Assembly: GCA_001794025.1 (NCBI GenBank)
Contig: MGJA01000003.1
Span: forward strand, 76,909 to 140,908
Origin: Candidatus Yanofskybacteria bacterium RIFCSPHIGHO2_01_FULL_41_21
GTDB taxonomy: Bacteria > Patescibacteriota > Minisyncoccia > 2-02-FULL-40-12 > GWA2-44-9
DNA length: 64,000 nt
Direction: 5' to 3'
How positions within the stretch are numbered: position 1 is the stretch's first letter; the number at the start of each line of letters is the position of its first letter. Shown here one piece after another: positions 11,682-48,243 of the stretch. The position numbers and the translations under genes are program-made. A model generated the notes under the pieces. That model was not told where the DNA came from, did no database searches, and worked only from the letters and a program-made list of their open reading frames with translations.

Positions 11682-11791
11682 CCCGTTAGAGATGTAACAG
11701 ACCGTCCACCGTCTTGAGGTGGTGGCTAGTTGCAATCATTTTTATATTATTGATTCTCATATTTATACCCGTAGGGTTCATCTCTAACGGG
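11682..11791 (-). repeat. 110-nt TIR element copy 1 (inverted relative to copies 2-5); carries mini-ORF 11686-11781 (-)
   Basis: cccgttagagatg ... catctctaacggg; ends exactly at the ATG of the C-methyltransferase gene. Both stem arms carry a compensatory A>G / T>C change. Confidence 0.9.
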
Positions 11792-11796
11792 ATTCA

Positions 11797-12621
11797 TTAC
11801 CATTCAGTATCAAGGTATTCTTTCAATGCATCTTGCCAGGGTCTTAGAAGGGTAGGATGGGGTTCCAGACCTTCATGAAGGCGATCGGCCGAGAGGCCGA
11901 AAGTTGTTGCTGGAACTGGTTTTACAATAGATTTTGAACCAATGATTTTGACTATTTCGTTGACCTCTTGGAAACGGGAACATACACCGGTATTCACAAT
12001 ATGAAATATACCCGTCGTTTCATTTGATAATATTTCCCGAATACCCGCGACTAGGTCCTTGCCATATGTAGGCGACCCAAAATGATCTTCAGTCGCTTGT
12101 ATTTCTGGTGTTCCCTGGGCTACTTTTTCCATTATTTTGCCGACAAGCTTCTTATCTTTACCACGTCCGCCACCAAATATCCAGCAGGTCCTAACGATGG
12201 CATAATTTTCCAATATTCCTCTGATCGAAAGTTCGCCAAGATATTTGGAACGACCGTATACATTTTGAGGATTGGGAGTGTCGGAAATTTTATACGATTC
12301 AGATTGTAACCCATCAAAAACAGAATTCGTAGAAATATATATCAGTTTTGCTCCAATCTCACGGGCTGCTAAGGCAATGTAATAAGTCCCAATAAAGTTT
12401 ACCCGATAAGCATAGTCGGGGTTTTCTTCACATTGCTTCAAGTCAGTGGCACCGGCAAGATGGATAATGGTTCTAGGTTTATATTTAGTTATAGTTTCAA
12501 ATACAGCTTTTTCATCCGTAATATCAAGCTGGTCATGAGTAAGCCGGATTCCGAAATCAATATAAGAACCAATCATTCCACCGGCTCCGGTAATTAAAGT
12601 TTTAGAAAAATCATCTTTCAT
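11797..12621 (-). CDS. rmlD: dTDP-4-dehydrorhamnose reductase-like (RmlD family NAD(P)-dependent reductase)
   Basis: TGAGGMIGS ... LDITD ... IIHLAGATD ... STNSVFDG pattern typical of RmlD. Confidence 0.65.
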   Translation of the reverse strand: MKDDFSKTLITGAGGMIGSYIDFGIRLTHDQLDITDEKAVFETITKYKPRTIIHLAGATDLKQCEENPDYAYRVNFIGTYYIALAAREIGAKLIYISTNSVFDGLQSESYKISDTPNPQNVYGRSKYLGELSIRGILENYAIVRTCWIFGGGRGKDKKLVGKIMEKVAQGTPEIQATEDHFGSPTYGKDLVAGIREILSNETTGIFHIVNTGVCSRFQEVNEIVKIIGSKSIVKPVPATTFGLSADRLHEGLEPHPTLLRPWQDALKEYLDTEW

Positions 12622-13367
12622 TTTGCTGTTGGCTCATGAAAAATTACGTGAGGGAAACCAAGTTTTGCACCGATATAAAACAATAGTATTTTGAGTGTTC
12701 GGAGAGAGTAGAGAATACTGTTTTTTAAACTGGCGCCCCGTTTATCGCCGGTGTAACTTACCTCAACCAGTACTTGGCTGACTTTGATTTTATGAAAGGC
12801 AGCTTGAGCTAAGAGTTCAATACTGAAAGCATAGTCCTTGGAATTTGCCATGAAATTTACCCGTTCCAATAATTTTCTTGTATAGACACGAAAACCTTGA
12901 TGATAATCATCTATCGGCAATCTTAAGACCACTTTAGATATCCAACCGAGCATTACAAGAGGCAGTAGTTTCCAAGCATACATACCATTTTCTGTCGGCT
13001 TGTGTCCTTTAAAAAACCTGTTTCCCAACACAAACTCGGACCCGTTTTCTATTTCCCTAATTGCGGGCAATATAGCCGAAGGTTTATATTCACCATCAGG
13101 ATGGATATCAATAATAATATCGGCTCCTTTTTCCAGGGCGATAGAAAGGGCTCGTTTTAGATTTCCGCCATATCCAAGATTAGTAGGATTTTTGTATGAT
13201 TCAATTCCTAGTCCTTGCGCCAATTCAAAAGTATTATCTTTTGAGTCATCGTCAACCAGAATAATTTCATCAAAGAGTTCTTTCGGCAGAGAACGATAAA
13301 GATTTTCCAGTGATTTCGCACAGTTATAGGCAATTAAAACGACGATAATTTTGGGCTTTTGTTCCAT
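12618..13367 (-). CDS. GT2 glycosyltransferase, polyprenyl-phosphate sugar synthase-like (Dpm1/ArnC/GtrB type)
   Basis: IIVVLIAYNCAKSL...EIILVDDDSKDNT...GYGGNLKRAL; ~250 aa. Confidence 0.7.
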   Translation of the reverse strand: MEQKPKIIVVLIAYNCAKSLENLYRSLPKELFDEIILVDDDSKDNTFELAQGLGIESYKNPTNLGYGGNLKRALSIALEKGADIIIDIHPDGEYKPSAILPAIREIENGSEFVLGNRFFKGHKPTENGMYAWKLLPLVMLGWISKVVLRLPIDDYHQGFRVYTRKLLERVNFMANSKDYAFSIELLAQAAFHKIKVSQVLVEVSYTGDKRGASLKNSILYSLRTLKILLFYIGAKLGFPHVIFHEPTAK

Positions 13368-13426
13368 GTAGGTGTAGCTATATTATCGCAAAGTCCCCTT
13401 CTTTTCAATAGTAAATAGAATAACTT

Positions 13427-14827
13427 TTAAGGTTGTTTTTCAACCGATTTGAGCTGATAGATCCTGTAACTACCGATTTGATTGAGAGGTTGATAGTAGG
13501 TATCAAGTATATTTTGATGGGGCACAACCATAGCGTTATCAGCGCTCTTGAAAACAATAAGTTGAGTCCTGAATGGATCCTTGATGAGGAGAGGATTAAA
13601 ACCAAGTTCGGGTACACCGACATATTTGACTATCTGATACCTTTGTTCGGTTGGTATCAATGAAGATACTTCAAGCGCGTTAATTATTCCGACTGACTGT
13701 TTGAGATTAGTAATGTAAGAAGCGGTATCTTGAGGGGAAGTATCTCTAACGTCACCACGAAATAGGAAAAGTTGTCCGATGTTAAGTAGAATCAAAAATA
13801 TCGTGATATATAAGCCGAGACGTTTCTTCCCTATAGATAAAATCGGATATAGGAATATTAAGGTTAATAACTCCAGAGGGAGCAGATAACGAAACCAGCC
13901 CGGACTACGCAGAAAATATATAATTAAAAAAGTAATATATATAAATGTAAAGAAATAAAGTTTCCTAAACTTTATTTCGGTTAACTGGTAGTTTTTAAAA
14001 ATAAATGATGTGATAACAATAAGTAGGAGGCCAAAATAAATAATAGTGCTGTGATTCCAATAAGTTTGAATATTGGAGATGACATTATTAAACAGGGAGG
14101 GCGAGTCAAACGGATTACGATAAAGATTGATTATTTCAATCCAATTTTTTGATGAGAAAATATTAGGCACAATAAGAATAAAGAATAGCGCAATAGGGCC
14201 GATACAACCGATAATAAAATCTTTAAGTTTCTGGAGTTTATTTTCTTCAAAAAAATAAAGATAAATTAGGAATGATGGTAATAGCAGAATATACATTGAT
14301 GGTTTACTGATTGCCGACAAACCAAAGAGAAGGCCGGTGAGTTTAAAATTTTGTTTTTGGATGAGTTGGTAGAGACCCCAAATAAGAAACACAAAACCCG
14401 GTATCTCACCCATAATCTGCATGCCGTTGCCATAAAAAGGAGCAAAGCTGGCCACGAGGGCTGTAGCGTACAAGCCGGCCGGTTGGCCCCAAAAGACCCT
14501 AACTACATAGAAAATGCTCCAGAGAGCAATTAAAAGCCATGCCAGCATCATCAGGCGACCGGAGACCAGATTGACATGACTAAGTTTGAAGATAAGGGCT
14601 AAGGGCAAAGATACGGTATAACCGGTAGCGTTAAAGAGATGTGAGTATCCACTGAAAATATTTGGGCTGACCATAATATCAAGCTTGCCATCTGTCGCAA
14701 AATTGCGGGCGGTTTCAACGATACCTGCTTCATCAAAGAAATAACGGGGTTGAGAAGTGAGTGTACGAAGCGAAACAAAAACCACAAAACTCATAATAAT
14801 TCCAAGGATGACATATGTGTATTTCAT
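13427..14827 (-). CDS. GT-C family membrane glycosyltransferase (ArnT/PMT-like)
   Basis: Polytopic; N-terminal extracytoplasmic loop with D/E motif region; paired downstream of a Dpm1-like GT2. Confidence 0.55.
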   Translation of the reverse strand: MKYTYVILGIIMSFVVFVSLRTLTSQPRYFFDEAGIVETARNFATDGKLDIMVSPNIFSGYSHLFNATGYTVSLPLALIFKLSHVNLVSGRLMMLAWLLIALWSIFYVVRVFWGQPAGLYATALVASFAPFYGNGMQIMGEIPGFVFLIWGLYQLIQKQNFKLTGLLFGLSAISKPSMYILLLPSFLIYLYFFEENKLQKLKDFIIGCIGPIALFFILIVPNIFSSKNWIEIINLYRNPFDSPSLFNNVISNIQTYWNHSTIIYFGLLLIVITSFIFKNYQLTEIKFRKLYFFTFIYITFLIIYFLRSPGWFRYLLPLELLTLIFLYPILSIGKKRLGLYITIFLILLNIGQLFLFRGDVRDTSPQDTASYITNLKQSVGIINALEVSSLIPTEQRYQIVKYVGVPELGFNPLLIKDPFRTQLIVFKSADNAMVVPHQNILDTYYQPLNQIGSYRIYQLKSVEKQP

Positions 14828-14921
14828 GGTTCTAATATAACAAAAGCTTGCCCGGTAGTGAAGTTTCTATAGTCGCATACACACGACTTTACCGTAGCTG
14901 GAGACCCTACTAAATTAGTGG

Positions 14922-17021
14922 TTATTGGAATTTAGAGTTGCTTATGGTATGTGGATTCATAATATATCGCATGATATATGGAGCAATGAATTTACTACCG
15001 TAAGGGCTTAGGTGATGTTTGTCGGAATAAAGAAGTACACCCCTATAAAGAATCGGGCATTGTTTATCTGTACACAAGAAAAGAAATGGATCAATGACAA
15101 TAAGATCACGTATCCCGTTGAATATTTTAATGTAGTCAGTCCTATCCCGTAAGACACTTTCTTTGTCTACAGCACATTCCATTTCCGTTAAAGTCCGGCC
15201 ATCAGAAAAAATTAGACAATCGCGGGGACTCATACTACCAGTTCCAGGATTCTCTGGTACATAAAAAACTTTCTTACCATTCCCATTGAGTAGGGAAACT
15301 GTGTCTGTCAGGCCATGAGAAAAAGTTTGTATTGGATTCTCTGATACAAAATCGGTATTTAAGGTAACTGCCTCTTCGCCTGTCAGGTACGTCAAGCCCC
15401 GCGTAGCAATAATCACAATCTCAATATCATTACTTTTCGTTAAAAATTCGAATATCTTTTCCGTCTTTTCCTTACATAATTTGCGATCATTAATATCTGC
15501 CCCCGCAATTACATTGTAAAAAGTCGGACATCCGCTAGTAGCAAGGAGTAACAGATTTTTTTTATATTTTTTAAGTTCATCTGCCAGTCCTTCAAATAAT
15601 GTCCCTGCGTGGGAATCTCCGATTAAAGCTACGGTGCCATTGCCATTAAGATTATTAAACCTACAGTAGTCAAAATCAGATTTACCAACACTGGTAAAAG
15701 TTAACTTTTGGCAAGCAGAATCTGTATGCACTTCCATTCCTTGGAGTTGTTTATAGTTTTCATCAAAGTTAGCGCCAAAAGTTTCATAGCGACCAGCAAA
15801 TCCAAACTTTCCTACCACCGTTGCCCCTAACATCCAGATTAAGAACATCAGGACAAGCAGAAACTTTGCCTTTGCTGGTTTATTTGACCCGAAACGAATC
15901 GGTTGTTCAATATACTTATATGTTCCCCAGGCAAGCACAAAGCTTAAACAGACCATCAATGCTATCACGTCGCTTCTTAAGGAAAACCCCCCTATTCTTG
16001 TAAACGACAGCAATGGCCAATGCCACAAATATAACGGATAGCTGATAAGCCCGACAAAAACGAGTATCCGATTAGAAAAAACTTTTCGGTTTAGCCATGC
16101 CTGCGGCCCAGTATATATAAGAAGTAATGTCCCCAAGGTCGGAAGTAATGCCCACCATCCCGGGAATTGTCTGGCTTCATTAATTAACAAAATCCCAGCA
16201 ATAACTAGTGCCAAACCAAGCCAAGCTAATATTTCCAACACTTTTTTTGAACTTAAAATTAAAGAAGAATAAAAAATAGAAATATAAGCCAGAAAAATTC
16301 CGAGAATTAATTCCCAAAAGCGTGTAAACGGAAAATAAAAAGCCGCGTCGGGTTGTAAATTTGTAAACCTAATATTAAACCAGAAAGAAATAAGAAAAAG
16401 TCCGGTAATAGCAACTAAGGGTTTGCGGATAAATTTCCAGGACAATAATAAAATCGCGGGAATAAACAGATAAAACTGCTCTTCAATACCGAGTGACCAC
16501 ATGTGCAGGAGGGGCTTATAATCTTTGGCCACATCAAAATATCCGGTCTCTAGATAGAGGACTATATTTGACAAAAATCCAGTTCCCCACATAACATGCT
16601 TACCAAGCGACATAAACTCATTTGGTAAAAGAATAAACCAACCCGTAACTAAAACAAAAATAAATACTACAATTATAGAAGGGAAGATACGGTTAATTCT
16701 ACGCGTATAAAAATCACGAAAGCTAAAAGTATTATTTTGCAACCCCTTAAATATAATTGTTGAGATAAGAAACCCCGATATGACAAAAAAAATGTCTACA
16801 CCTATAAACCCCCCTGGAATATTTACCAATGGGAAAGAGTGGAAAGCAAGTACTAAGAGAATAGCTATCCCGCGAAGTCCATCAATATCTGCTCGGTATT
16901 TTAAACGACTATCTAAATTATCTTTTGAGTTTGACAACATATAAAAATCATACCATGCCTTATAATAGCCAACAATCTTTGATTCAGATGGAGTTTTACA
17001 GCTAACTGCCAATAACATCAA
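14922..17021 (-). CDS. Acyltransferase-3 (OafA-like) membrane O-acyltransferase fused to SGNH hydrolase domain
   Basis: YRADIDGLRGIAILLVLAFHSF...GVDIFFVISGFLIS (AT3) plus C-terminal LIGDSHAG (SGNH). The real start may be the internal Met near 16940. Confidence 0.8.
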   Translation of the reverse strand: MMLLAVSCKTPSESKIVGYYKAWYDFYMLSNSKDNLDSRLKYRADIDGLRGIAILLVLAFHSFPLVNIPGGFIGVDIFFVISGFLISTIIFKGLQNNTFSFRDFYTRRINRIFPSIIVVFIFVLVTGWFILLPNEFMSLGKHVMWGTGFLSNIVLYLETGYFDVAKDYKPLLHMWSLGIEEQFYLFIPAILLLSWKFIRKPLVAITGLFLISFWFNIRFTNLQPDAAFYFPFTRFWELILGIFLAYISIFYSSLILSSKKVLEILAWLGLALVIAGILLINEARQFPGWWALLPTLGTLLLIYTGPQAWLNRKVFSNRILVFVGLISYPLYLWHWPLLSFTRIGGFSLRSDVIALMVCLSFVLAWGTYKYIEQPIRFGSNKPAKAKFLLVLMFLIWMLGATVVGKFGFAGRYETFGANFDENYKQLQGMEVHTDSACQKLTFTSVGKSDFDYCRFNNLNGNGTVALIGDSHAGTLFEGLADELKKYKKNLLLLATSGCPTFYNVIAGADINDRKLCKEKTEKIFEFLTKSNDIEIVIIATRGLTYLTGEEAVTLNTDFVSENPIQTFSHGLTDTVSLLNGNGKKVFYVPENPGTGSMSPRDCLIFSDGRTLTEMECAVDKESVLRDRTDYIKIFNGIRDLIVIDPFLFLCTDKQCPILYRGVLLYSDKHHLSPYGSKFIAPYIMRYIMNPHTISNSKFQ

Positions 17022-17097
17022 ACTATGTCAACCTCAAAATTAGCTATCGGGCTTGTAAAAATAGATAATTAATCATATCATACAATAAATTTATACC

Positions 17098-19157: not shown

Positions 19158-19225
19158 ATTGATTCTTATTGTATTTTAAGATATTATGCCATGTAAGGTA
19201 CTATAAATCAAAATGAGAGTCAATA

Positions 19226-20317: not shown

Positions 20318-20342
20318 TGTTTCAATTTAACTGAATATAAAT

Positions 20343-21119: not shown

Positions 21120-21128
21120 ATTTAAATC

Positions 21129-24291: not shown

Positions 24292-24293
24292 GA

Positions 24294-25082
24294 TTGTTTC
24301 CAATGAACAAAGAAGAAATAAAAACAATAATGGATGTTGAGGGCTACACTTCTTTGAAAGAGGGTTTGTTTTTATATTCTCTGGCGGGCACTCTTATAAA
24401 TTCTCCGGTTATGGTTGAAATTGGAAGCTGGAAGGGGCGTTCCACAATTTGGTTAGCCAGTGGTTTGAGAGACGGCACTGGCAGTGGCCGAGTTGTGGCC
24501 GTAGATCATGGTGTTGGTGATTCGGATGCCGGTATTCAGCAGACAGCGGAAATTTTTTCTGCCAATATAAAAAAAAGTAATGTCGCTGAAATGATAACCA
24601 CAATTTTTAAGAAATCCGAAGAAGCTATTAGTAACTGGTCAGATCCTGTTGATATGCTTTTTATTGATGGGGCTCATGATTACGAAAATGTAAAAAGAGA
24701 TTTTGCGTGGGAGGAGTTCTTAAAAGATGGTGGTTGGTTGGTTATGCACGATGTTCTTAATCCTGCGGAAGGACCCGCACGTATGTTTTTGGAAAGGGTT
24801 ATCAAAACAAACGGTTTTAAAAATTTTGGCACCGTTGATTCAATTCTTTTTGCCCAAAAAGGAGAAGGACTTAAACGGTATGATTTAAGAAAAACAATTA
24901 TTGGGATACTCTTGAGATTTTGTCTTATTTTAACCAAAGTCAATAAAAAACTTCCCAAAAATGGTTTACCTAAAAAAATTGTAAGGATTTTAATGAAGGA
25001 TATTGTTAGGGGTTTAATTACTAAGGTCGCAAATTTTAAACTTGTCGGTTTTGATAAAATAAAGACCGAATTAACGCAATGA
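24294..25082 (+). CDS. Class I SAM-dependent methyltransferase (Methyltransf_24-like O-methyltransferase)
   Basis: MVEIGSWKGRST ... LFIDGAHDYENV ... GGWLVMHDV. Confidence 0.65.
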   Translation: MFPMNKEEIKTIMDVEGYTSLKEGLFLYSLAGTLINSPVMVEIGSWKGRSTIWLASGLRDGTGSGRVVAVDHGVGDSDAGIQQTAEIFSANIKKSNVAEMITTIFKKSEEAISNWSDPVDMLFIDGAHDYENVKRDFAWEEFLKDGGWLVMHDVLNPAEGPARMFLERVIKTNGFKNFGTVDSILFAQKGEGLKRYDLRKTIIGILLRFCLILTKVNKKLPKNGLPKKIVRILMKDIVRGLITKVANFKLVGFDKIKTELTQ

Positions 25083-25084
25083 GT

Positions 25085-25194
25085 CCCGTTAGAAATGAAC
25101 CCTACGGGTATAAATATGAAAATCAATAATATAAAAATGATTGTAACCAGCCACCACCTCAAGACGGTGGACGGTCTGTTACATTTCTAACGGG
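25085..25194 (+). repeat. 110-nt TIR element copy 2; mini-ORF 25095-25190
   Basis: cccgttagaaatg ... catttctaacggg; immediately followed by ATG 25195. Confidence 0.9.
25095..25190 (+). CDS. Conserved 31-codon mini-ORF inside the repeat (MNPTGINMKINNIKMIVTSHHLKTVDGLLHF); TAA 4 nt before the downstream ATG
   Basis: Intact, same length and frame in all 5 repeat copies. Could be a leader peptide or a coincidence of a structured element. Confidence 0.3.
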   Translation: MNPTGINMKINNIKMIVTSHHLKTVDGLLHF

Positions 25195-26226
25195 ATGAAG
25201 ATATTATATATTTCTCCACACGGTGATTTTACCGACCAGATGAAGAGGGTTTTTATTGAAAATGGTGTAGAGATTATTTATATTGATGATAGAAAGAATT
25301 ATTTTATGCCGTGGTTATTGAGAGGGTCTTTAATTTGGAAGATAACTAGACGGATAAATTTCATAAGAAGAAAAAGTAATGAAATTCTAAATGAAAAAGC
25401 GATAGAATTATGCCGGAAACATCACCCAGATTTTTTGTTTACAGGGAAAGGGATGAACATAAAGGTCTCAACTGTTTTAAAAATTAAAAGCATGGGCATA
25501 AAAACGGTAACTTGGTTTATGGAAAATACCTATCAGGAAAGGTATTTTAATTGGTTTTCTAATAATTATCTAAATTATGATTACGTATTTACCAATGATT
25601 CATATTTGTTTGATAAATTTTTTAATAAATCCTCTGCAAAACTGTGTAATATTTCAATGACCATTGACCCCGATTGTTATAAGGAACAAACTTTAAACAA
25701 AGAAGAGGCAGAAAAATATTCCTGTGATGTTTGTTTTGTGGGTGCATTTGATCAAAACAGAGAAAGAATTCTTAGTAAGGTAAACGAGATAAAAGGACTT
25801 AATCTAAAAATTTTTGGCTGGGTCGGCTGGAAAAACTCTTCTTTAGCGTCTTTATACCACGGTCCCCTTAATCTTGAACAAATGGCTAAACTTTACAGGT
25901 CTGCTAAAATTTGTCTCAATATAAATGGTCGAAATAAAAGTACTGATCCAGTAATGAATGGTGTTAGTTTAAAGACCTTTGAGATTCCGGCTTCAAATGG
26001 GTTTCAAATATCTGATTATCGTAAAGACGTAGAGGATCTTTTTAAAATAGGAGAAGAAATTGAAATATTCAGAAGTGATGATGAGTTGATTGATAAGATT
26101 AAATTTTATTTAAATAATGAAGAGGCCAGAAATAAAATTGCTGAAGCCGGCCACAAAAGAGTTTTAACGAGTCATACTCTTGATAAGCGGGTCAAAGATA
26201 TATTGAATTTTATTCAGACCAATTGA
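25195..26226 (+). CDS. CgeB-like / DUF3880 glycosyltransferase-family protein
   Basis: C-terminal half resembles CgeB-type glycosyltransferase-like domain (FEIPASNGFQISDY...). Confidence 0.45.
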   Translation: MKILYISPHGDFTDQMKRVFIENGVEIIYIDDRKNYFMPWLLRGSLIWKITRRINFIRRKSNEILNEKAIELCRKHHPDFLFTGKGMNIKVSTVLKIKSMGIKTVTWFMENTYQERYFNWFSNNYLNYDYVFTNDSYLFDKFFNKSSAKLCNISMTIDPDCYKEQTLNKEEAEKYSCDVCFVGAFDQNRERILSKVNEIKGLNLKIFGWVGWKNSSLASLYHGPLNLEQMAKLYRSAKICLNINGRNKSTDPVMNGVSLKTFEIPASNGFQISDYRKDVEDLFKIGEEIEIFRSDDELIDKIKFYLNNEEARNKIAEAGHKRVLTSHTLDKRVKDILNFIQTN

Positions 26227-26232
26227 ATGAAT

Positions 26233-26342
26233 CCCGTTAGAAATGAACCCTACGGGTATATGTATGAAAATCAATAATATAAAAATGATTGCAACTGGCC
26301 ACCATCTCAAGACGGTGGATGATCAGTTACATCTCTAACGGG
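26233..26342 (+). repeat. 110-nt TIR element copy 3; mini-ORF 26243-26338
   Basis: Same element; followed by ATG 26343. Confidence 0.9.
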
Positions 26343-27368
26343 ATGAACAACAAAGTAAAAATCGGAATTTTGGGATGTGCGGATATTGCCAAGAGATATG
26401 CAATTAAAGCATTCCAATCAATAGATAATTGCGAAGTCGTCAGTATCGCCAGTCGTAATCCCGTAAAGGCCAAAGAATGGGCGTTGGATTTTAATATACA
26501 AGCGGAAGAATCATACGATTCTTTGTTGAACAATAAAGACATAGATGCGGTCTATATACCCCTACCGGTGGGATTACATAAAGAATGGGCCCTCAAAGCA
26601 GTTGCGGTCGGCAAACATATTATCTGCGAGAAATCTTTGGCTGAGGATTTTGAATCCGTAAAAAGTATAGTGTCTGCTTGCCAATCTAAAGGAGTAGTTT
26701 TGTACGAGAATTTTATGACCGATTTTCATCCTCAACATCAAAAAGTATTATCTATTATTGAGAATGGGGATATTGGCGAGCCATTTATATTTAGAAGTTT
26801 TTTTGGTTTTCCTCCACTAAAAAAGGACAACATTAGATACGACAGTAAACTTGGCGGGGGTTGCCTTAATGATGTCGGTGCGCATATCGTCTTTATGGCG
26901 CGGAAGATTTTTAAAAAAGAACCCGTTTCGGTTATGTGTAATTTGATAAACGACAAAAAGCTTGGCGTTGATACGGGAGGTACAGCGGTGCTTGAATTTT
27001 CAGATGGCCAAGCAGCGTTAATGGGCTTTAGTTTTTGTTCATCCTATCAAAATAATTATTCTGTGTGGGGGAGCAAGGCCGTGCTTAATGTGAAACAGGC
27101 CTATTCTATAAGGCCAGACACGAAACCAATCGTTGAGCTTACTCAAATTCAGAACTACCAGGAGGTAGTAACCCAAATCAACGCACCTTCAGCCAACCAG
27201 TTTGAAATACTTTTTCATGATTTTTGCGATACTATCTTAAATCAGGAAAACAGGGCTGAAAAAATTAATAATATCTATTTACGTCTTCTGGCTCAAGCCA
27301 AGGTTTTAGAAGCCATGCGCCTGTCCGCTTTGGAGAATAGAATGGTTGAGGTTAAGGAAATTAAATGA
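26343..27368 (+). CDS. Gfo/Idh/MocA-family NAD(P)-dependent oxidoreductase (putative NDP-sugar keto-reductase/dehydrogenase)
   Basis: KIGILGCADIAKRYAIKAF Rossmann N-terminus. The track ORF (26289, TTG) is an artefactual extension into the repeat. Confidence 0.75.
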   Translation: MNNKVKIGILGCADIAKRYAIKAFQSIDNCEVVSIASRNPVKAKEWALDFNIQAEESYDSLLNNKDIDAVYIPLPVGLHKEWALKAVAVGKHIICEKSLAEDFESVKSIVSACQSKGVVLYENFMTDFHPQHQKVLSIIENGDIGEPFIFRSFFGFPPLKKDNIRYDSKLGGGCLNDVGAHIVFMARKIFKKEPVSVMCNLINDKKLGVDTGGTAVLEFSDGQAALMGFSFCSSYQNNYSVWGSKAVLNVKQAYSIRPDTKPIVELTQIQNYQEVVTQINAPSANQFEILFHDFCDTILNQENRAEKINNIYLRLLAQAKVLEAMRLSALENRMVEVKEIK

Positions 27369-27382
27369 TCTAGTATAAAAAA

Positions 27383-27404: not shown

Positions 27405-27419
27405 CATTCAACGACGGTC

Positions 27420-29818: not shown

Positions 29819-29819
29819 T

Positions 29820-30860: not shown

Positions 30861-30870
30861 CCACTCTCTT

Positions 30871-32013: not shown

Positions 32014-32020
32014 CCTAATA

Positions 32021-32752: not shown

Positions 32753-32759
32753 AATAAGT

Positions 32760-32869
32760 CCCGTTAGAAATGAACCCTACGGGTATAAATATGAAAATCA
32801 ATAATATAAAAATGATTGTAACCAGCCACCACCCCAAGACGGTGGATGGTCTGTTACATTTCTAACGGG
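32760..32869 (+). repeat. 110-nt TIR element copy 4; mini-ORF 32770-32865
   Basis: Same element; followed by ATG 32870. Confidence 0.9.
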
Positions 32870-33604
32870 ATGAACTCTAAAGAAACAAATAAAACTCCAG
32901 AGTTATCTATAGTGGTTTTGTGTTACCGAAGCGGTAAAACAATAATTCCTTTCTTGGAAAAAATGAAACAAGAATTTAAAGAAGGAGAGATGGATGATTA
33001 CGAGTTGGTTTTGGTAGGAAATTATTTTCCCGGGACCGACGATACAACCCCGAACGTGGTTAGGGAATTGGCAAGAAATAATCCCAAAATAGTGTCCGTG
33101 ACATTAGAGAAAAAAGGAATGATGGGTTGGGACACCATTAGTGGATTGAATGCCGCCAGTGGGCGTGCGATTGGTTTTATTGATGGCGATGGACAGATGC
33201 CCTCGCGGGATATCGTGCGGCTCTATAAGGTTTTAAAAAGCGGTGAGTTTGACTTGGTAAAGACATTTCGTAAAACACGTATGGACAGCGCTTATCGGAA
33301 GTTTATCTCCGGTTGTTATAATCTGATATTCCATATACTTTTCCCAAGTGCGACATTTAGAGATGTGAATGCTAAACCAAAATTAATGACCATGGAGGCC
33401 TATAAGAAGATGAAGCTTTCCTGTGACGGTTGGCTGATTGACGCGGAAATAATGTTAGAGTCAATGCGTCTGGACTTGAATGTGGCCGAAGTGCCTACCG
33501 TTTTTTATAAAAACGAATGGCGGGGAAGTTTTGTAAAGATTTGGACAATTTTTGAATTTTTAATTAATTTAGTTGTTTATAGGTTTAAGTACTGGTTTAA
33601 ATAA
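32870..33604 (+). CDS. GT2 glycosyltransferase (Dpm1-like polyprenyl-phosphate sugar synthase type)
   Basis: LSIVVLCYRSGKTI ... GFIDGDGQMP. The track ORF 32846 extends into the repeat. Confidence 0.7.
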   Translation: MNSKETNKTPELSIVVLCYRSGKTIIPFLEKMKQEFKEGEMDDYELVLVGNYFPGTDDTTPNVVRELARNNPKIVSVTLEKKGMMGWDTISGLNAASGRAIGFIDGDGQMPSRDIVRLYKVLKSGEFDLVKTFRKTRMDSAYRKFISGCYNLIFHILFPSATFRDVNAKPKLMTMEAYKKMKLSCDGWLIDAEIMLESMRLDLNVAEVPTVFYKNEWRGSFVKIWTIFEFLINLVVYRFKYWFK

Positions 33605-34398: not shown

Positions 34399-34404
34399 AA
34401 AGAC

Positions 34405-36222: not shown

Positions 36223-36259
36223 AAAAAAGATCGGGTGGCTCCGTTACGGATCCACCCGA
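36222..36259 (-). terminator. Rho-independent terminator for the DUF457 gene (tcgggtgg-loop-ccacccga with A8/T8 run)
   Basis: 8-bp stem with a nested ccg-tta-cgg loop; A8 at 36222-36229 gives U8 on the minus-strand transcript. Confidence 0.7.
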
Positions 36260-36268
36260 CCGACATGT

Positions 36269-36844: not shown

Positions 36845-36981
36845 TGCGGATTCTCTTTCTGACGCACGTGGCGTCTATTTAAAGTGGGTTGTTAAGGGTC
36901 TTTTCTTTGTAGAATAGACGTCGTCCATATTCTACGCCTATATTGGTAAAATGTCAATGTTTTACTTCAGTAGAGCAAAAA

Positions 36982-37902: not shown

Positions 37903-37905
37903 TGG

Positions 37906-39498: not shown

Positions 39499-39507
39499 GA
39501 AGTTTTA

Positions 39508-40383: not shown

Positions 40384-40469
40384 TAGTTTTTAAACTATAC
40401 CACAAAATTTTAATATTCGCAATGGGGGATGTTGCCCTATTTTTATGATATAATAATATCATATTTGAG

Positions 40470-41831: not shown

Positions 41832-41881
41832 AAAATAGAAAAATGGGGTATATTTTGGGACATAAAAAGCCCTGATTCCTT

Positions 41882-43844: not shown

Positions 43845-43846
43845 AA

Positions 43847-44395
43847 ATGATTAAAAAATGGAAAAAATCGGGACCGGAAAAAGTTATACTTGAAAAGTTT
43901 GGTAAATTTTCCAAGAGACAATATTTTGTTGATCCTCGAGACGGGAGCAAGCAGGAATATATATTTGTAGGTGAACAAAATTCAGTCGGTGTTGTCGCTC
44001 TTACAAAAGATAATAAAATAATCCTTACGGAGCAGTTTATGCAAGCTGCCAACGAAGTACTGGTTGAAGTTCCCGCCGGGGTGATTGATAAAGGTGAGAC
44101 CCCATTAATGGCAGTGAAGAGAGAGCTTGAAGAAGAGACAGGTTATGGTTCTAAAAATTTCAAGGAAATCGGAAAATTCATGAGATCAACCAGGAGTATT
44201 CCGACATGTTCGTATTGTTTTTTGGCCACTGATTGCAAAAAGATAAAAAATCCCAAAATTGATAAAGAAGAGGATTTAGGAGTAATAATCAAACCGTTTA
44301 AAAATTGGGTAAAAGAAATTGAAAAAGGTAAAACTCTTGATTGTCTCTCGGTTATCGCCACCTTTTTGGCGGAAAAGCATTTAAAAGATGAATAA
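43847..44395 (+). CDS. NUDIX hydrolase
   Basis: Nudix box GVIDKGETPLMAVKRELEEETGY. Confidence 0.75.
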   Translation: MIKKWKKSGPEKVILEKFGKFSKRQYFVDPRDGSKQEYIFVGEQNSVGVVALTKDNKIILTEQFMQAANEVLVEVPAGVIDKGETPLMAVKRELEEETGYGSKNFKEIGKFMRSTRSIPTCSYCFLATDCKKIKNPKIDKEEDLGVIIKPFKNWVKEIEKGKTLDCLSVIATFLAEKHLKDE

Positions 44396-45521
44396 TAAAA
44401 AGTTAAAAATCGGATGCGTGACGTCATCCGTTTCCTATTATGGTGGGTGGGATACTTTATCAAAAGGGATAGTTGGAGCAGTGGCGAAACAGCACGATGT
44501 CATTGCGCTGACTTCGATGGGTTATAAAAACGACCCGGTTCCATATCCTGTTTATTCCGTTTTACCCCATCATTACATTAGTTTCGGTTTGGGTAATCAA
44601 ATCAGCGTCTTTTGGAATTGCATAAAATATTTCAGAGGATGCGATGCTATCCATACTTTCATTGAGCCATTTACGCCCGGGGCGGCATTTGCAAGTAAGG
44701 TGTTAGGTATACCTCTTTTTATCACACTTGCCGGTACGTATTGTGTGATTCCGAAACACGGTGGTCTGCGGGGTTTTGCGAAACGAACGATGATGAAATT
44801 CATGTACAATCAAGCCAGCTTCATCGCCACCGGTTCATACAAAAATATTGAACTTATTGAAGAGGTAATGTCTCTGGATAAAAAATGGGAATTTGTTCCA
44901 TTCGGTGTTGATCCAGAAAAGTTTAAAATAACCAAGACATACGAACCGTCGCCGTATCCATTTTTATTTACCGTCGGTGAAGTAAAAGCCCGTAAGGGTG
45001 CCGATTATATCATTAAGGCCCTGGCGATTCTGAAAGATGAATTTCCAGACCTTAGATATAAAATTGCCGGTAACGATAAAACGAAACCGAGTTTCGTGGC
45101 GGGTCTCAAAAAATTAATCGTTGAAAATGGTCTTGAAAGCCGGGTGGAATTATTGGGCCGAGTGAGCGAAGAAGATTTATTGCGCTACTATAGTACCTGC
45201 ACGGCGTTCGTCTTGGCTGCTCAAACCATAGATGGGGCGTTTGAGGGATTCCCGATGGTGTTCTATGAATCCCATTCTTATGGCGCGCCCCTGATTGCTA
45301 CTAAGGGCTACGGTTCCGAATATGTTATTAAAGACGGCTATAACGGATTTCTCGTTCCCCAAAACAATGTTGAAGAATTAGTTGTGGCAATTCGTAAAAT
45401 TGTCAGCAACCCCGCTCTTCGTAATGAAATGTCTCAACATGCAATTTCCGAAGCTCAAAAGCATTCTTGGGGTGCTATCAGCGTCCAGTATTTGGATGCG
45501 TATCAGAGGCTAATTAAATAG
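44388..45521 (+). CDS. Glycosyltransferase family 4 (GT-B)
   Basis: FEGFPMVFYESHSYGAPLIATKGYGSEYVIKDGYNGFLV. Confidence 0.75.
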   Translation: MNNKKLKIGCVTSSVSYYGGWDTLSKGIVGAVAKQHDVIALTSMGYKNDPVPYPVYSVLPHHYISFGLGNQISVFWNCIKYFRGCDAIHTFIEPFTPGAAFASKVLGIPLFITLAGTYCVIPKHGGLRGFAKRTMMKFMYNQASFIATGSYKNIELIEEVMSLDKKWEFVPFGVDPEKFKITKTYEPSPYPFLFTVGEVKARKGADYIIKALAILKDEFPDLRYKIAGNDKTKPSFVAGLKKLIVENGLESRVELLGRVSEEDLLRYYSTCTAFVLAAQTIDGAFEGFPMVFYESHSYGAPLIATKGYGSEYVIKDGYNGFLVPQNNVEELVVAIRKIVSNPALRNEMSQHAISEAQKHSWGAISVQYLDAYQRLIK

Positions 45522-45579
45522 GGGATTTCCAATTGGTTTACATTGACTTAGGGCCTATTTTTAGGTACTATCTGATGGC

Positions 45580-46305
45580 ATGTTAGATGAACAAGGAGCG
45601 CAAAATTATTGGGGAAAGCAGGTTGAAAAAGGGGGAATGGAACCCTGTCACTATTTGAATAAATGGCAGGATAAATACGCCTTTGAAATTAGAACATCTG
45701 TTTTTAGAAGAAGTGATTTTCGGGGCCTTAAAAAGATAGTCGATATCGGATGTGGGGTTGGGGACTATACCGCGAAGATGTTCAAGCTTATTGATAGTGA
45801 TGCTCATATAGTTGGTTTTGATTTCCCTTTTAATATTGAAATTGCCCGCAAGAAACATAGGGATTTAAAGAACATTGTTTTCAAAGAAGGTTCGGTACCC
45901 GATGAAAACATTGAGTCGGACATAAAAAGCGCGGATGCGGTTATCATGACCACCGTCTATACCCATTTGACACCAGATTCCCGAGAAATTTTACTGGGCT
46001 ATTTTGAAAAAATGAAATCCGGTGCGAAAATGTTTATTCTGGAATATTTTCCCGAAGTTGTGCCGGAGTTTCAGAAGAATCAAGCCCATAAGATCGTTGA
46101 ATCATCTAAAGAAGTCCAGGTTCGTTTTATAAACCATGGTCTCCAGGTATTAGAAGTCCGTCCCGTTAATTATATTGATAGTTTCCTGTTCTTCCATTGG
46201 GGTAAAAATTGGTTCGTGTATTTTATAACCAAATGGCTGGATAATTTTGTTAGAGTTTTTAAATATTATCGTTCAAAATACAAGTTAATTATTTTTACAA
46301 GATGA
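45580..46305 (+). CDS. Class I SAM-dependent methyltransferase
   Basis: VDIGCGVGDYTAKMF. Confidence 0.65.
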   Translation: MLDEQGAQNYWGKQVEKGGMEPCHYLNKWQDKYAFEIRTSVFRRSDFRGLKKIVDIGCGVGDYTAKMFKLIDSDAHIVGFDFPFNIEIARKKHRDLKNIVFKEGSVPDENIESDIKSADAVIMTTVYTHLTPDSREILLGYFEKMKSGAKMFILEYFPEVVPEFQKNQAHKIVESSKEVQVRFINHGLQVLEVRPVNYIDSFLFFHWGKNWFVYFITKWLDNFVRVFKYYRSKYKLIIFTR

Positions 46306-47402
46306 AAATACAATTTCTATCGCCAAACTTAAATAAAAAAGATATCCAAGAAGCTGTCAAAGTTCTTAAATCGGGCTGGATTACCTATGGGCCGGTGACC
46401 GAAAAATTTGAAGAAATTTTTGCCGGATATGTCGGATCTAAAAAAGCGGTTTTTAATTCCAGTGGCACGGCGGCTCTGCACGTGGCGTTATTGGTAGCTG
46501 GTGTTGGTCCTGGCGATGAAGTCATCACAACTCCTCTTTCATATGTGGCAACCAGCAATGTTATTTTATATGTCGGTGCTACACCCGTATTTGTGGATGT
46601 GGATGCAAAGATGGGTCTTATAGATCTTAATAAAATTAAGGGAGCAATCACATCCAAAACCAAAGCTGTTATCCCGGTCCATTTATATGGCCAGATGGTG
46701 GATATGAAAAAGTTAAAGAAGATCTGTGGTGCTAAAATTAAGATTATTGAAGATTCGGCTCATGCTATTGAATCCGAACGGGATGGCATTAAACCTGGCC
46801 AGTTAAGTTTCGCATCTTGCTTCAGTTTTCATGCCGCAAAAAATATAACTTCCGGAGAAGGCGGAGCAGTTACGGTTAATGATGATAAATTGGCTCACGA
46901 ATTAAAATTATTGTGTGAAGGTGGAGTAGAAAGAACGAGTACGGGAAGGTTCATGACTTTATTGGGATATAAATATTCAGCCACAACTTTCCAGGCGGCG
47001 ATGTTGATTTCTCAGATGAAGCGTATCAATTCCGATTGGAAGAAGAGAAAAATTTTATGGGAACGTTACAAAAAGGGTTTAACTGGAGTTGCGGGTGTTT
47101 CTTTCCCTGAACAAGTACCAAACTCACGGCATGGATATAATATGTTTGTTATTTGGGTTGAACCGACCCGTCGAGATATACTAAGGGAAAAACTTGGTCA
47201 AGCCGGTATTCAAACATCCATTCATTTTAATCCGATTCACTTGGAACCACATTACAAAAAATCATTCGGTTATAAAAAAGGCGATTTTCCGGTTACTGAA
47301 AAACTTGGATTTTCCTCTATTACACTTCCTCTCCACCAAAAACTGACGAAAGAGAATCAAGATTACATAGTAGATAAAATTAAGGAATTATTGGAGGTCT
47401 AA
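46302..47402 (+). CDS. DegT/DnrJ/EryC1/StrS-family PLP-dependent sugar aminotransferase
   Basis: SSGTAALHVAL ... SFHAAKNITSGEGGAV (PLP Lys). Confidence 0.85.
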   Translation: MKIQFLSPNLNKKDIQEAVKVLKSGWITYGPVTEKFEEIFAGYVGSKKAVFNSSGTAALHVALLVAGVGPGDEVITTPLSYVATSNVILYVGATPVFVDVDAKMGLIDLNKIKGAITSKTKAVIPVHLYGQMVDMKKLKKICGAKIKIIEDSAHAIESERDGIKPGQLSFASCFSFHAAKNITSGEGGAVTVNDDKLAHELKLLCEGGVERTSTGRFMTLLGYKYSATTFQAAMLISQMKRINSDWKKRKILWERYKKGLTGVAGVSFPEQVPNSRHGYNMFVIWVEPTRRDILREKLGQAGIQTSIHFNPIHLEPHYKKSFGYKKGDFPVTEKLGFSSITLPLHQKLTKENQDYIVDKIKELLEV

Positions 47403-47406
47403 ATAT

Positions 47407-48141
47407 ATGGCAAAAAAAATAAGACAACGTATTGTCAATTTTTTTATAGATATCTTAAGTAAACCCTCAATTAGATATCGGTTCCTGTTGCCTTTGTCCA
47501 CGCTAATTTCAAAAAATCCTGATGAAGAGATATTGGAAAAGGCAATGAAATTTGCGGCTCATGTCGGTATAGGTGGGGATTATCTGGAATTTGGTGTTTG
47601 GAAAGGGCGCTCATTTGCTCGGGCGTATCATATGAGAAAATATATTAAAGACGCCAAACTTAACGGTATGAAATTTTATGCCTTTGACTCGTTTCAGGGT
47701 TTACCCGAAATAAAAAATGAACATGACACCAGTTCTTCCGAATTTAAAAAAGGTGATTACGCCTGCGACATAGGAACATTTAGACATAATCTTATCAATA
47801 AAGGTGTTGATCTTAAGGAGGTAACAATTATTCCCGGCTGGTACGAAGAAACTTTGAATGAAGAGACCAAAAATAAGTTGTCTCTTAAAAAAGCGTCAAT
47901 TATTTTTGTTGATTGCGATATTTATGAGTCAGCCGTTTCTGTTCTTAATTTTATAACCGATTATGTGGTAAATGGTACAATTATCATTTTTGATGATTGG
48001 TTTGCTTTCAGTGGCGACCCCGAAAAAGGTGAACAACGGGCTTTTAAAGAATGGTTGGAACGCAATCCAAATATCAAGGCCGTTGAATGGCAAAGAGTAA
48101 ATTGGAAAAGCAATTCGTTTATCTTAAACAAATCCCGTTAG
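47407..48141 (+). CDS. TylF/MycF-family sugar O-methyltransferase
   Basis: GDYLEFGVWKGRS ... IFVDCDIYES ... GTIIIFDDW. Its stop codon TAG lies inside the 5' TIR of repeat copy 5. Confidence 0.75.
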   Translation: MAKKIRQRIVNFFIDILSKPSIRYRFLLPLSTLISKNPDEEILEKAMKFAAHVGIGGDYLEFGVWKGRSFARAYHMRKYIKDAKLNGMKFYAFDSFQGLPEIKNEHDTSSSEFKKGDYACDIGTFRHNLINKGVDLKEVTIIPGWYEETLNEETKNKLSLKKASIIFVDCDIYESAVSVLNFITDYVVNGTIIIFDDWFAFSGDPEKGEQRAFKEWLERNPNIKAVEWQRVNWKSNSFILNKSR

Positions 48142-48243
48142 AAATGAACCCTATGGGTATAATAATGAAAATCAATAATATAAAACTGATTGTAACTAGC
48201 CACCACTCCAATATGGTGGACGGTTTGTCACATTTCTAACGGG
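48134..48243 (+). repeat. 110-nt TIR element copy 5; mini-ORF 48144-48239
   Basis: Most diverged copy but same length, TIRs and ORF frame; followed by ATG 48244. Confidence 0.9.

Follow-up and report, generated by a model that had tools for sequence, protein, structure and literature searches.

Bacterial MITEs, of which the Correia elements of Neisseria are one example, are about 100-150 bp long, end in inverted repeats and are flanked by a short target duplication; they lack a transposase of their own, occur in many copies with insertion polymorphism, lie next to genes with which they are co-transcribed, and can form a long RNA stem from their inverted repeats (PMC10969869, PMC3184786). Correia elements have 26-bp repeats and a TA duplication, contain promoters as well as an IHF site, and are able to invert (PMC10969869, PMC3184786). 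The MIRUs of Mycobacterium (Supply et al. 1997), as one review summarizes them, are 40-100-bp units with imperfect inverted repeats only, forming minisatellite (VNTR) loci; they are intergenic in polycistronic operons, at filled or empty sites with tetranucleotide direct repeats, their ends overlap the adjacent genes, and they include small ORFs and form part of the operon transcript (PMC3184786). [quoted passage not shown] 2008), at 178-235 bp with 21-bp repeats and 9-bp duplications, is AT-rich with a very stable RNA fold, and the review summaries of it describe no start-codon precision (PMC10969869, PMC3184786). Neisseria REP2 and the inverted-repeat sequences of Borrelia are repeats directly upstream of many genes, ATG included; they bring a promoter as well as a ribosome-binding site, and no inverted repeats with target duplications delimit them (PMC3184786). 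Finally, REPINs and REP elements, mobilized by RAYT, are hairpin formers of about 25-110 nt with two inverted short repeats around a spacer.

The window analyzed here, a stretch of 64,000 nucleotides from Candidatus Yanofskybacteria bacterium RIFCSPHIGHO2_01_FULL_41_21, carries five copies of an element of exactly 110 nt, each where the original prediction had placed it (Table 1), and they align without gaps at 83.6-98.2% pairwise identity. Inverted repeats with the sequence CCCGTTAGARATG bound all five. The 13-mer CCCGTTAGAAATG, with up to two mismatches allowed, has 10 matches in the window that make up exactly five pairs, compared with 2.0 ± 1.6 in shuffled sequences, of which 0 of 100 reach 10; a relaxed core search and a covariance-model search found no further copies in the window. 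The repeat, first described as 13 nt and extendable to about 15, does extend to 15 bp when the T that precedes CCCG and the first base of the ATG are counted in, which places the start codon's A and U inside the predicted stem. Every copy is followed immediately by an ATG, the start of an ORF of between 244 and 457 codons; the Pfam domains of the five ORFs (C-methyltransferase, Glyco_trans_1_2/CgeB-like, GFO_IDH_MocA, Glycos_transf_2 and Glyphos_transf) are those named in the original prediction for its five glycan genes. The upstream gene stops 1-7 nt before the element in c1-c4, and in c5 its TAG falls within the 5' repeat; a locus identical to that of c5 is present in one of the compared contigs (L075).

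Table 1. Element copies and internal ORFs in the window, with flanking 4-mers (left / right) and neighboring genes
Feature	Position	Strand	Core; covariance-model score	Flanking 4-mers; match	Upstream gene	Downstream gene
Copy c1	11681..11792	(-)	110-nt core 11682-11791 + terminal T (11792), A (11681); 139 bits	TGAA 11793-11796 / TGAA 11677-11680 (minus-strand reading); 4/4	RmlD-like, ends 11797	C-methyltransferase 10452-11681; A of ATG at 11681
Copy c2	25084..25195	(+)	25085-25194; 143 bits	TGAG 25080-25083 / TGAA 25196-25199; 3/4	methyltransferase, stop TGA 25080-25082	CgeB-like glycosyltransferase, starts at A 25195
Copy c3	26232..26343	(+)	26233-26342; 127 bits	TGAA / TGAA; 4/4	glycosyltransferase, stop TGA 26224-26226	Gfo/Idh/MocA, starts at A 26343
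Copy c4	32759..32870	(+)	32760-32869; 142 bits	TAAG / TGAA; 2/4	SDR, ends 32752	GT2, ATG at 32870
Copy c5	48133..48244	(+)	48134-48243; 133 bits; diverged subfamily a2	CAAA / TGGA; 1/4 (no match)	TylF-like methyltransferase, ends at TAG 48139-48141	TagF-like, starts at A 48244
Internal ORF in c2	25095..25190	(+)	31 codons; 5'-repeat ATG to 3'-repeat TAA, 4 nt before the gene's ATG
Equivalent ORF in c1	11686-11781	(-)
Equivalent ORF in c3	26243-26338
Equivalent ORF in c4	32770-32865
Equivalent ORF in c5	48144-48239

Judged by its sequence, the element is a short non-autonomous transposon in which unrelated cargos share one set of ends. Its own ends have the form T-CCCGTTAGA(R)ATG ... CAT(Y)TCTAACGGG-A. 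Among the Patescibacteria-type groundwater and sediment contigs compared, we found 83 distinct elements of 50-135 nt with the same inverted repeats; their cargos differ, and some are whole tRNA genes. The shortest members are 25 nt, consist of the inverted repeats only, and are also flanked by TGAA. The bases just outside CCCG and CGGG are complementary in 74 of 76 elements (T..A in 46, C..G in 28), and the next four are the same on both sides in 39 of the 76. The flanking target duplication is 4 bp long and of the form TNNA, mostly TGAA, with A-TGAA-T as the preferred context; the invariance of the inner bases leads us to favor a 4-bp duplication plus a terminal T and A, although the same flanks might be read as a 6-bp duplication. 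Like MITEs as non-autonomous DDE-type DNA transposons, the element is short, has no internal transposase gene (the sole ORF in its 110 nt has 31 codons), ends in 15-bp inverted repeats that are perfect or near-perfect in all copies, is flanked by target-site duplications, and occurs at orthologous sites that are filled in some genomes and empty in others. Against such a reading, the 4-mers beside the element agree only imperfectly at c2 and c4 and do not agree at c5 (Table 1). As had been noted, the window contains no transposase or recombinase: none of the 29 ORFs scanned has such a domain, and six have no Pfam match of any kind. Since neither the window nor 722 kb of compared loci yielded an autonomous element or a transposase with these ends, we infer that the element moves in trans, by means of a transposase that would be supplied elsewhere. 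MAGs labelled Patescibacteria and Yanofskybacteria carry copies of the family, and the window locus recurs across several groundwater metagenome assemblies. One window protein has a 45%-identical homologue named as from a Parcubacteria-group bacterium.

Orthologous sites show the insertions directly. The junctions that hold c2 and c3 are element-free in three syntenic clusters (L099, L100 and L101; proteins 77-90% identical), where the same gene pairs have stop and start codons that overlap or adjoin; the empty c2 junction reads ..taATGAGG.. in L099, ..taATGAAA.. in L100 and ..acATGAAG.. in L101. At the yidD/yidC junction of an rnpA/yidD/yidC locus, one genome is empty (L068, cgTAATGAGTtc), and two others carry, at the same nucleotide, insertions from two different subfamilies, a 108-nt relative (L063) and a 110-nt copy (L008). 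Three more empty sites were found, and L099 and L100 each retain a decayed solo 3' end before the ATG of another gene. Since each of the empty sites already has the ATG, gene starts are targeted by the element rather than created by it; of the two forms in which a MITE-like mobile leader had been proposed, the first is thus upheld by the terminal repeats, the 4-bp duplications, the filled and empty sites and the varied cargos, and the second falls. Copies at orthologous sites are more similar to each other (91-95%) than are the flanking genes (71-89%), which could reflect constraint and not only recurrent insertion.

We therefore regard it as very probable that the five repeats are copies of a MITE that prefers ATGA-type junctions, where its 4-base target duplication rebuilds both a stop and a start codon. 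Why, then, does each copy look fused to a start codon? Only 16 of the 235 ATGAA/TTCAT sites in the window are start codons, yet all four insertions into ATGAA are at start codons. ATGAA.. begins many genes in this AT-rich genome, and the preferred context is also that of the ATGA/TAATG stop-start junctions in operons whose genes are tightly packed. Once the element has inserted, the upstream gene still has its TGA or TAA from the left duplicate, and the terminal A of the element together with the right duplicate (TG..) would re-form the downstream ATG. Both reading frames would survive, so that insertions at start-codon sites would escape purifying selection, while those at the approximately 93% of ATGAA/TTCAT sites away from start codons, nearly all of them intragenic, would be lost. 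The apparent fusion would thus arise because junction insertions are tolerated and the others are not. A bias toward gene starts shows in the wider set too, where 37 of the 83 elements lie directly before an ATG that opens an ORF of 70 codons or more.

A tolerated insertion would still have to be translated past. The AUG would be buried in the 15-bp terminal stem of the mRNA; the insertion is probably tolerated because ribosomes that complete the upstream gene come to a halt within the stem or 1-7 nt short of it, and melt it. The same ribosomes might, in the 110-nt family, begin again at the 5'-repeat ATG and translate the 31-codon ORF across the element, stopping 4 nt before the AUG of the gene, in what would amount to a relay of translational coupling.

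Compared with the described systems, the element differs from Correia elements in its unrelated 15-bp repeats, its TNNA duplication and its lack of a sigma-70 promoter consensus, and in always being co-oriented with a downstream gene whose ATG it abuts exactly; repeat sequence and length, duplication and promoter all place it outside the Correia (CREE) family. With MIRUs it shares intercistronic operon positions and tetranucleotide direct repeats, and by analogy they are the closest functional counterpart of an insertion that preserves stop and start. Here, however, the copies are single and non-tandem, have perfect 15-bp inverted repeats, belong to a different phylum, and hold an internal ORF that does not overlap the flanking stop and start codons, so that the resemblance is functional and not one of sequence membership. 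Like Chunjie, it is AT-rich with a very stable predicted RNA fold. Unlike REP2 and the Borrelia repeats it has no promoter or Shine-Dalgarno signal, and its ATG pre-exists in empty sites.

The orientation of the copies leaves room for more than tolerance. Every copy points the same way as the gene behind it, at about 16 independent sites of the family and at about nine of a second cargo family; minus-strand copy c1 takes the direction of its gene rather than that of the replichore. Inverted repeats, being symmetric, do not account for this lock on their own, and the lock suggests that some strand-specific property matters; strict co-orientation also leaves room for an effect at the transcript level and for an acquired function. 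It is possible, though we hold it only tentatively, that copies of the MITE have been exapted as intercistronic translational couplers or attenuators, in which the AUG stays hidden in the stem as long as neither the upstream gene nor the 31-codon ORF is being translated; such a function would be compatible with a MITE origin and would add selection to it. In its favor, besides orientation, the gene's own ATG lies in a GC-rich, paired context without the Shine-Dalgarno sequence seen at other window genes, conservation at orthologous sites is higher in the copies than in their flanks, and the ORF spans the element from repeat to repeat. It is open in 13 of 14 family sequences and starts about 2-18 nt after the upstream stop; with the orientation reversed the ORF would be ATG-TAA, and there would be an in-frame upstream start 26 codons before the gene's ATG. 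Despite 38 variable sites the 14 sequences contain no indels, and the frame is kept for that reason. Yet the substitutions in the ORF look neutral (10 synonymous and 32 non-synonymous, with 16/14/12 by codon position), only 2.2% of possible changes would create a stop, and neither the substitution pattern nor the stop probability lends statistical support to a ribosome relay. A through-ORF is missing from the diverged relatives (106-109 nt) and from other cargo families that sit at gene starts, and related genomes manage without the element at the same junctions. With one column taken out, counts of G.U against A.C pairs do not favor the sense strand, and the antisense strand folds (-41.1 kcal/mol, z = -5.0) as well as the sense strand (-39.6 kcal/mol, z = -6.05). 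A ribosome relay between genes is a putative function of the 31-codon ORF.

A broader version of this idea is doubtful. It would make the CCCGTTAGA-ended elements a Patescibacteria-wide system of orientation-locked mobile cassettes, some of them translated leaders that insert at start codons and relay ribosomes through the repeat-to-repeat ORF, and others cassettes of complete tRNA genes, with the acceptor stem extended by the repeat stem, that insert into resident tRNA genes of the same amino-acid family and replace them in function.

It is unlikely that the element is an intervening sequence removed at the RNA level, its stem cut by RNase III or a similar enzyme so as to separate the cistrons or restore the junction. 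Correia element stems are RNase III substrates (PMC10969869), and in the relatives with tRNA cargo the acceptor stem is prolonged by the repeat stem, in the manner of a processing stalk. Here, though, the stem is 15 bp plus short helices, the sequence marks no cleavage sites, and removal from RNA would leave the target duplications in the DNA unexplained.

The original prediction saw in the copies the signature of a structure-constrained element, and a dedicated cis-regulatory leader akin to a riboswitch or thermosensor, having evolved to block access to the initiation region of glycan genes, would fit the strong predicted fold, the paired A and U of the AUG, a few compensatory changes, and the presence of all five window copies within one glycan cluster. 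We consider it very unlikely. The signature can be read otherwise: the stem is the inverted repeat of a transposon, in which co-variation of the two ends is expected, and although the double substitution reported for copy 1 (G...C) is real, copy 3 has the 3' change only and an A.C mismatch. Internal covariation is modest, with five pairs altered in both partners, compared with 2.5 ± 1.0 after shuffling. In Rfam 15 no match in the window reaches its gathering threshold, and those at E <= 10 are at chance level, scoring 11.8-16.4 bits where the gathering score of each family is far higher. Variable and AT-rich, the central region offers no conserved unpaired core like a ligand pocket, and the element contains no terminator signal. 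The same element precedes unrelated genes (yidC, yidD) in other genomes, the stem is common to elements with unrelated cargo including tRNA genes, and close relatives run the same operon without it. Insertion polymorphism, with target duplications and empty sites that show recent insertion, largely refutes such a leader. That the stem would bury the AUG if it formed in mRNA stands from the earlier claim; that it exists for this purpose does not follow, and the start-codon fusion is no evidence for a dedicated regulatory RNA.

Hardly credible is a REPIN/REP-type or IS200/IS605-derived palindrome that a Y1 transposase (RAYT/TnpA) mobilizes, or an attC recombination site as in integrons, even though the whole element can fold as a hairpin, its 25-nt members resemble REP palindromes, and GTTAGAA fits the attC core GTTRRRY at six of seven positions. 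To our knowledge Y1-type elements do not duplicate their target and carry subterminal hairpins rather than true terminal inverted repeats, whereas this family has true terminal repeats, empty sites and duplications in 39 of 76 elements, which sets it apart from REPINs, REP elements and IS200/IS605-derived PATEs. An attC site has the order RYYYAAC...GTTRRRY and comes with a cassette array and a nearby intI; here the order is reversed (GTTAGAA...TTCTAAC, each core 6/7), and the window holds no integrase domain or cassette array.

For the organism, then, the five copies are best read as MITE insertions that its operons tolerate. If copies have in addition been exapted, they would tie downstream glycan genes to the translation of the genes upstream, and if translated-leader cassettes of the wider kind exist, they would rewire translational coupling in surface-glycan operons.

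The repeat in the window is best read as a mobile element. A MITE-like mobile leader had been one of the readings offered in the original prediction, and it is the one that the evidence upholds: shared ends enclose varied cargo, the flanks carry target duplications, filled sites can be paired with empty ones, and five of the six features of the structural MITE definition are present. We take it to be a start-codon-targeting MITE of a superfamily apparently undescribed in Patescibacteria (Candidate Phyla Radiation); our literature search found no paper on this repeat, or on MITEs in these bacteria.

The five copies (c1 to c5) stand where they were first reported, align without gaps over 110 nt at 83.6-98.2% identity, and are each followed directly by the ATG of an ORF of 244-457 codons whose Pfam domains match the gene identities originally assigned. 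The window contains exactly ten occurrences of their terminal 13-mer, which make up five inverted pairs; shuffled windows gave 2.0 +/- 1.6 matches, and none of 100 attained ten. Neither relaxed core searches nor a covariance model based on 19 members of the family detected a sixth copy in the window. The inverted repeat, reported as extendable to about 15 nt, is indeed 15 bp long: it takes in the T preceding CCCG and, at the other end, the A of the start codon, whose A and U thus lie within the predicted stem. Of the compensation seen in the terminal stem, the G...C double change of c1 is real, but in c3 the 3' change stands alone and produces an A.C mismatch. The upstream stop codon lies 1-7 nt before the element, except at c5, where a TAG falls within the 5' repeat instead. 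The whole window is a surface-glycan cluster, and, as predicted, no transposase or recombinase domain turned up in the 29 ORFs scanned. Copies c2 and c3 form direct repeats around one glycosyltransferase gene, a composite-transposon-like arrangement that could delete or mobilise it; they did not import the gene, since relatives have it at the same place without elements.

How far does the family extend beyond this locus? Exact-protein look-up found the locus on several groundwater metagenome contigs, all with the elements. In a one-genome-per-species scan true copies occurred in only two MAGs, labelled Patescibacteria group and Candidatus Yanofskybacteria, and a match in a Methylococcaceae MAG (L007; L-numbers denote loci in other contigs or metagenomes) was rejected as a chance 21-mer. 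A homologue of one glycosyltransferase of the window, 45% identical, is named as belonging to a Parcubacteria-group bacterium. When JGI/ENA metagenomes were scanned with the two inverted repeats alone, leaving a free gap of 74-104 nt, 78 loci were recovered; relaxed matching within the collected loci yielded 95 distinct repeat-bounded elements of 25 to about 430 nt, 83 of them 50-135 nt long, with mutually unrelated interiors. Common ends around arbitrary cargo have the look of a transposase recognition site, unlike a dedicated RNA. The original prediction proposed a search for whether every copy abuts an ATG; 37 of the 83 elements do, counting ATGs that open an ORF of at least 70 codons. Elements also occur close together: a 69-nt element at the rnpA-yidD junction and a 108-nt element at yidD-yidC in L063, with a third copy about 700 nt beyond; three copies inside 5.7 kb in L030; and the five within 37 kb of the window. 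Such clustering is consistent with local hopping or permissive operons. A cognate transposase or autonomous partner was found neither between repeat pairs 0.5-3.5 kb apart, nor at solo ends, nor elsewhere in the collected loci; the pairs are separate MITE copies flanking host genes, apart from one chance repeat, and the few solo ends lie mostly near contig ends.

The flanks define the target. Taking x as the six bases before CCCG and y as the six after CGGG, x6 and y1, the two bases next to the repeats, pair as complements in 74 of 76 elements (T..A 46 times, C..G 28 times), and x2-x5 equals y2-y5 in 39 of 76. TGAA is dominant among the duplicated 4-mers, which also include TAAA/TTTA, TCAA/TTGA, TGGA/TCCA and TGCA, and the palindromic consensus T-N-N-A is as expected for a dimeric transposase. 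Where the two hexamers differ, they do so nearly always at the outermost base (x1 or y6). Because the inner pair is so regularly complementary and mismatches are outermost, we count that pair as part of the element and take the duplication to be 4 bp, giving R|TNNA|Y as the putative target preference. In symmetric cases the duplication may be 6 bp; insertion regenerates the start codon under either length. Elements with C..G ends recurrently have GGTTGAC(A/C), a -35-like hexamer, as a duplicate in both flanks; this points to a different preferred target for the subtype, G|TTGA|C, perhaps located in promoter regions.

Sites without the element are seen in related genomes. Three syntenic clusters, whose glycosyltransferase is 90% (L099), 85% (L100) and 77% (L101) identical to that of the window, have the methyltransferase, glycosyltransferase and Gfo/Idh/MocA genes in the window's order, and at the junctions corresponding to c2 and c3 the element is absent, with stop and start codons either overlapping or next to each other. 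At c2 the left TGAG retains the state of the closest relative (ATGAGG). The yidD/yidC junction is likewise empty in L068 (ccgTAATGAGTtct) and holds a 108-nt family member in L063, the two loci being 88% identical over the joined flanks of the site; in L008, which is more distant, a 110-nt copy from a different subfamily has inserted at that same nucleotide, so this hot spot was struck more than once. Three additional filled/empty pairs were found. Among near-identical strains there was no polymorphism, every one carrying the element, and empty sites appeared only at 77-90% protein identity. Copies at "orthologous" sites are 91-95% alike, against 71-89% for the surrounding genes, a difference due at least in part to repeated insertion at hot spots. 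In L099 and L100 a solo decayed 3' end (..CATCTTAACTTTCTAACGGG in L099) stands directly before the ATG of a Methyltransf_24 gene and resembles the remnant of an old insertion whose 5' half is gone.

Why should the copies adjoin start codons? The suggestion that the element targets or creates gene starts survives in its first half: an ATG is already in every empty site, so the element creates none. With insertion at A|TGAA, the element's terminal A and the duplicated TG would form an ATG on the right, while the left duplicate would preserve the TGA of the upstream gene, or an adjacent TAA. Sixteen of the 46 genes in the window begin with ATGAA. Start codons account for only 16 of its 235 ATGAA/TTCAT sites and for all four insertions at ATGAA; nearly all the other sites are intragenic in so compact a genome. 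Purifying selection is enough to explain the pattern.

Orientation is a separate matter. At all of about 16 independent insertion sites, the 110-nt family and its relatives point the same way as the downstream gene, including one site (L013) where the element lies 6 nt upstream of the ATG and not on it, and about nine sites of family b, a second, AT-rich cargo family with the same ends, are likewise co-oriented. With the covariance model, sense-strand scores of family copies are 89.6-144 bits (127-144 for 110-nt copies), and antisense scores are 27.6-39 bits. Since the minus-strand copy c1 has its gene's orientation and cumulative GC skew climbs almost monotonically across the window, orientation tracks the gene, not replication; and since the inverted repeats are symmetric, codon regeneration cannot cause the lock. 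It could be explained by a 31-codon ORF that runs from an ATG in the 5' repeat to a TAA in the 3' repeat that lies 4 nt short of the gene's ATG: ribosomes that complete the upstream gene would stop up to about 18 nt before the repeat ATG, restart there, melt the structure and terminate beside the real start. In the reverse orientation the ORF would shrink to ATG-TAA and an in-frame start would arise 26 codons upstream of the gene. The ORF is open in 13 of 14 family sequences, with no indels and 38 variable sites, but only 2.2% of possible changes give a stop, so that this openness is not significant; substitutions look neutral (10 synonymous, 32 non-synonymous; codon positions 16/14/12), which rejects peptide-level selection, and other cargo families sit at gene starts without a through-ORF. 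The difference in open stretches between forward and reverse orientations is suggestive for the 110-nt family only. Equally open is the alternative that the transposition complex reads its target asymmetrically (TGAA versus TTCA). An A-rich leader fails as a general rule: A-over-T skew is about +0.2 in the 110-nt family and about 0 in family b.

The other reading originally offered, a structure-constrained regulatory RNA, fares less well than the MITE. The sense strand has a predicted fold of -39.6 kcal/mol (z = -6.05), and the hand-drawn structure is 94.7% paired across 19 family sequences; the antisense strand folds equally well (-41.1 kcal/mol, z = -5.0). Two-sided pair changes number five, against 2.5 +/- 1.0 in shuffles, 11 of 500 of which attain five, and among them is a G-C to U-A exchange, present in three sequences, at the repeat's inner end. 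This covariation support is modest, and is weakened because two of the five pairs belong to the inverted repeat, whose arms would be expected to co-vary in any case. The alignment has 37 G.U pairs to 14 A.C mismatches; a single column contributes 16 of the G.U cells, and the remaining 21 versus 14 is not decisive for a strand-specific RNA structure. Scans of the element for sigma-70 promoters and intrinsic terminators gave nothing consistent on either strand, and Rfam gave no match at gathering threshold and nothing above chance level at E <= 10. With these scans negative and the structural support modest, we do not accept an evolved regulatory RNA. REPIN/RAYT, IS200/IS605-type and attC readings do not fit the target duplication and the motif order.

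The same inverted repeats also enclose complete tRNA genes (Leu-CAG, Leu-TAG, Thr-TGT, Thr-CGT, Val-CAC and Ala-CGC), which score 50.6-75.4 bits against the Rfam tRNA model where scanned. Base 1 of the tRNA is the last G of ..GAAATG, and in the Leu elements the C-A of CATTTC provides bases 72-73, so that there the acceptor stem is lengthened by the repeat stem. The cassettes lie in decayed tRNA gene fragments, of the same amino-acid family where identifiable; one flank is canonical (..TTCA|C-CCCG or CGGG-G|TAAA), the other is rearranged, and no clean target duplication was found at them. The Leu-CAG cassette was seen in at least four distinct contexts, in one case inside another cassette of this kind. 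A reading of the outer tRNA halves as an intron-containing tRNA was rejected: ARAGORN, allowing introns, did not call them, and Rfam matched the inner genes only. The literature on tRNA insertions in Patescibacteria concerns group I introns.

Elements within the window and at related loci.
Feature	Location	Detail
c1	window 11682-11791(-)	before C-methyltransferase gene
c2	window 25085-25194	before CgeB-like glycosyltransferase gene
c3	window 26233-26342	before Gfo/Idh/MocA gene
c4	window 32760-32869	before GT2 gene
c5	window 48134-48243	before TagF-like gene
Direct repeats c2/c3	window 25085-26342	enclose one glycosyltransferase gene
c2 junction, filled	window	..gcaATGAGT[element]ATGAAG..
c2 junction, empty	L099; L100; L101	..ttataATGAGG..; ..gcataATGAAA..; ..ttaacATGAAG..
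c3 junction, filled	window	..ttgaATGAAT[element]ATGAAC..
c3 junction, empty	L099; L100; L101	..ttaatATGGAC..; ..aactgATGAGC..; ..ttaatATGAAT..
Solo 3' ends	L099:9091-9113; L100:9202-9224	none at window counterpart, ~24290-24302
Genes called into element	window 10452-11735(-); 26289-27368; 32846-33604	in-element TTG/ATG starts
Upstream regions mostly lacking Shine-Dalgarno, several with TATAAT-like box	window genes at 1081, 13427, 39508, 49637	examples
Local clusters	L063:2999-3406; L030:5997-11665	L063 at rnpA / yidD / yidC
C..G-terminus elements	L024:2385-2482; L072:573-672; L029:91-195; L046:8282-8345; L049:12873-12963	GGTTGAC(A/C) flanks
tRNA cassettes (among others)	L026:8013-8119; L038:3196-3298; L044:6144-6247; L046:4770-4874; L048:593-694; L049:6674-6778; L051:392-498; L065:440-544	complete tRNA genes, same ends
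110-nt family and diverged relatives		106-110 nt
Family b		AT-rich; GGGATYCA...GTCGTTTAATTAAA...GGCGTTTGCGCC
GC-rich forms		64-69 nt
Bare palindromes		25 nt

The closest functional analogues are MIRUs, which are intercistronic, have tetranucleotide direct repeats and ends that overlap neighbouring genes, and contain small ORFs (PMC3184786); the 31-codon ORF scheme resembles the restart-and-terminate scheme proposed for them. Chunjie is a MITE within an operon that it leaves undisturbed (PMC10969869). Both differ from the present element in sequence, repeat architecture and host. Correia elements share with it an RNA stem formed by inverted repeats and co-transcription with genes, and have TA duplications, promoters and IHF sites (PMC10969869). 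The ATG-containing REP2 repeats of Neisseria supply their own promoter and ribosome-binding site (PMC3184786).

The elements bear on annotation as well, for they break assemblies and mislead the calling of start codons. When ORFs are called mechanically, three of the downstream genes gain extensions that begin at TTG or ATG codons inside the element; public gene calls for L001 place the start of the GT2 gene at the same in-element ATG. A Shine-Dalgarno sequence is missing from most window genes, and several show a TATAAT-like box just 5-10 nt ahead of the ATG, a hint that translation in this organism may start in a leaderless or Shine-Dalgarno-independent way.

In conclusion, ordinary transposon mechanics explain the five-start-codon pattern and remove a riboswitch-like reading that was tempting but unsupported. 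The element is ordinary in mechanism and unusual in its target precision, its orientation lock and its tRNA-carrying relatives. As 110-bp direct and inverted repeats in a surface-glycan cluster, its copies could in principle drive deletions or inversions. Patescibacteria genomes are tiny, gene-dense and almost without intergenic space, and a mobile element can persist in them by landing on stop-start junctions where both codons are rebuilt.
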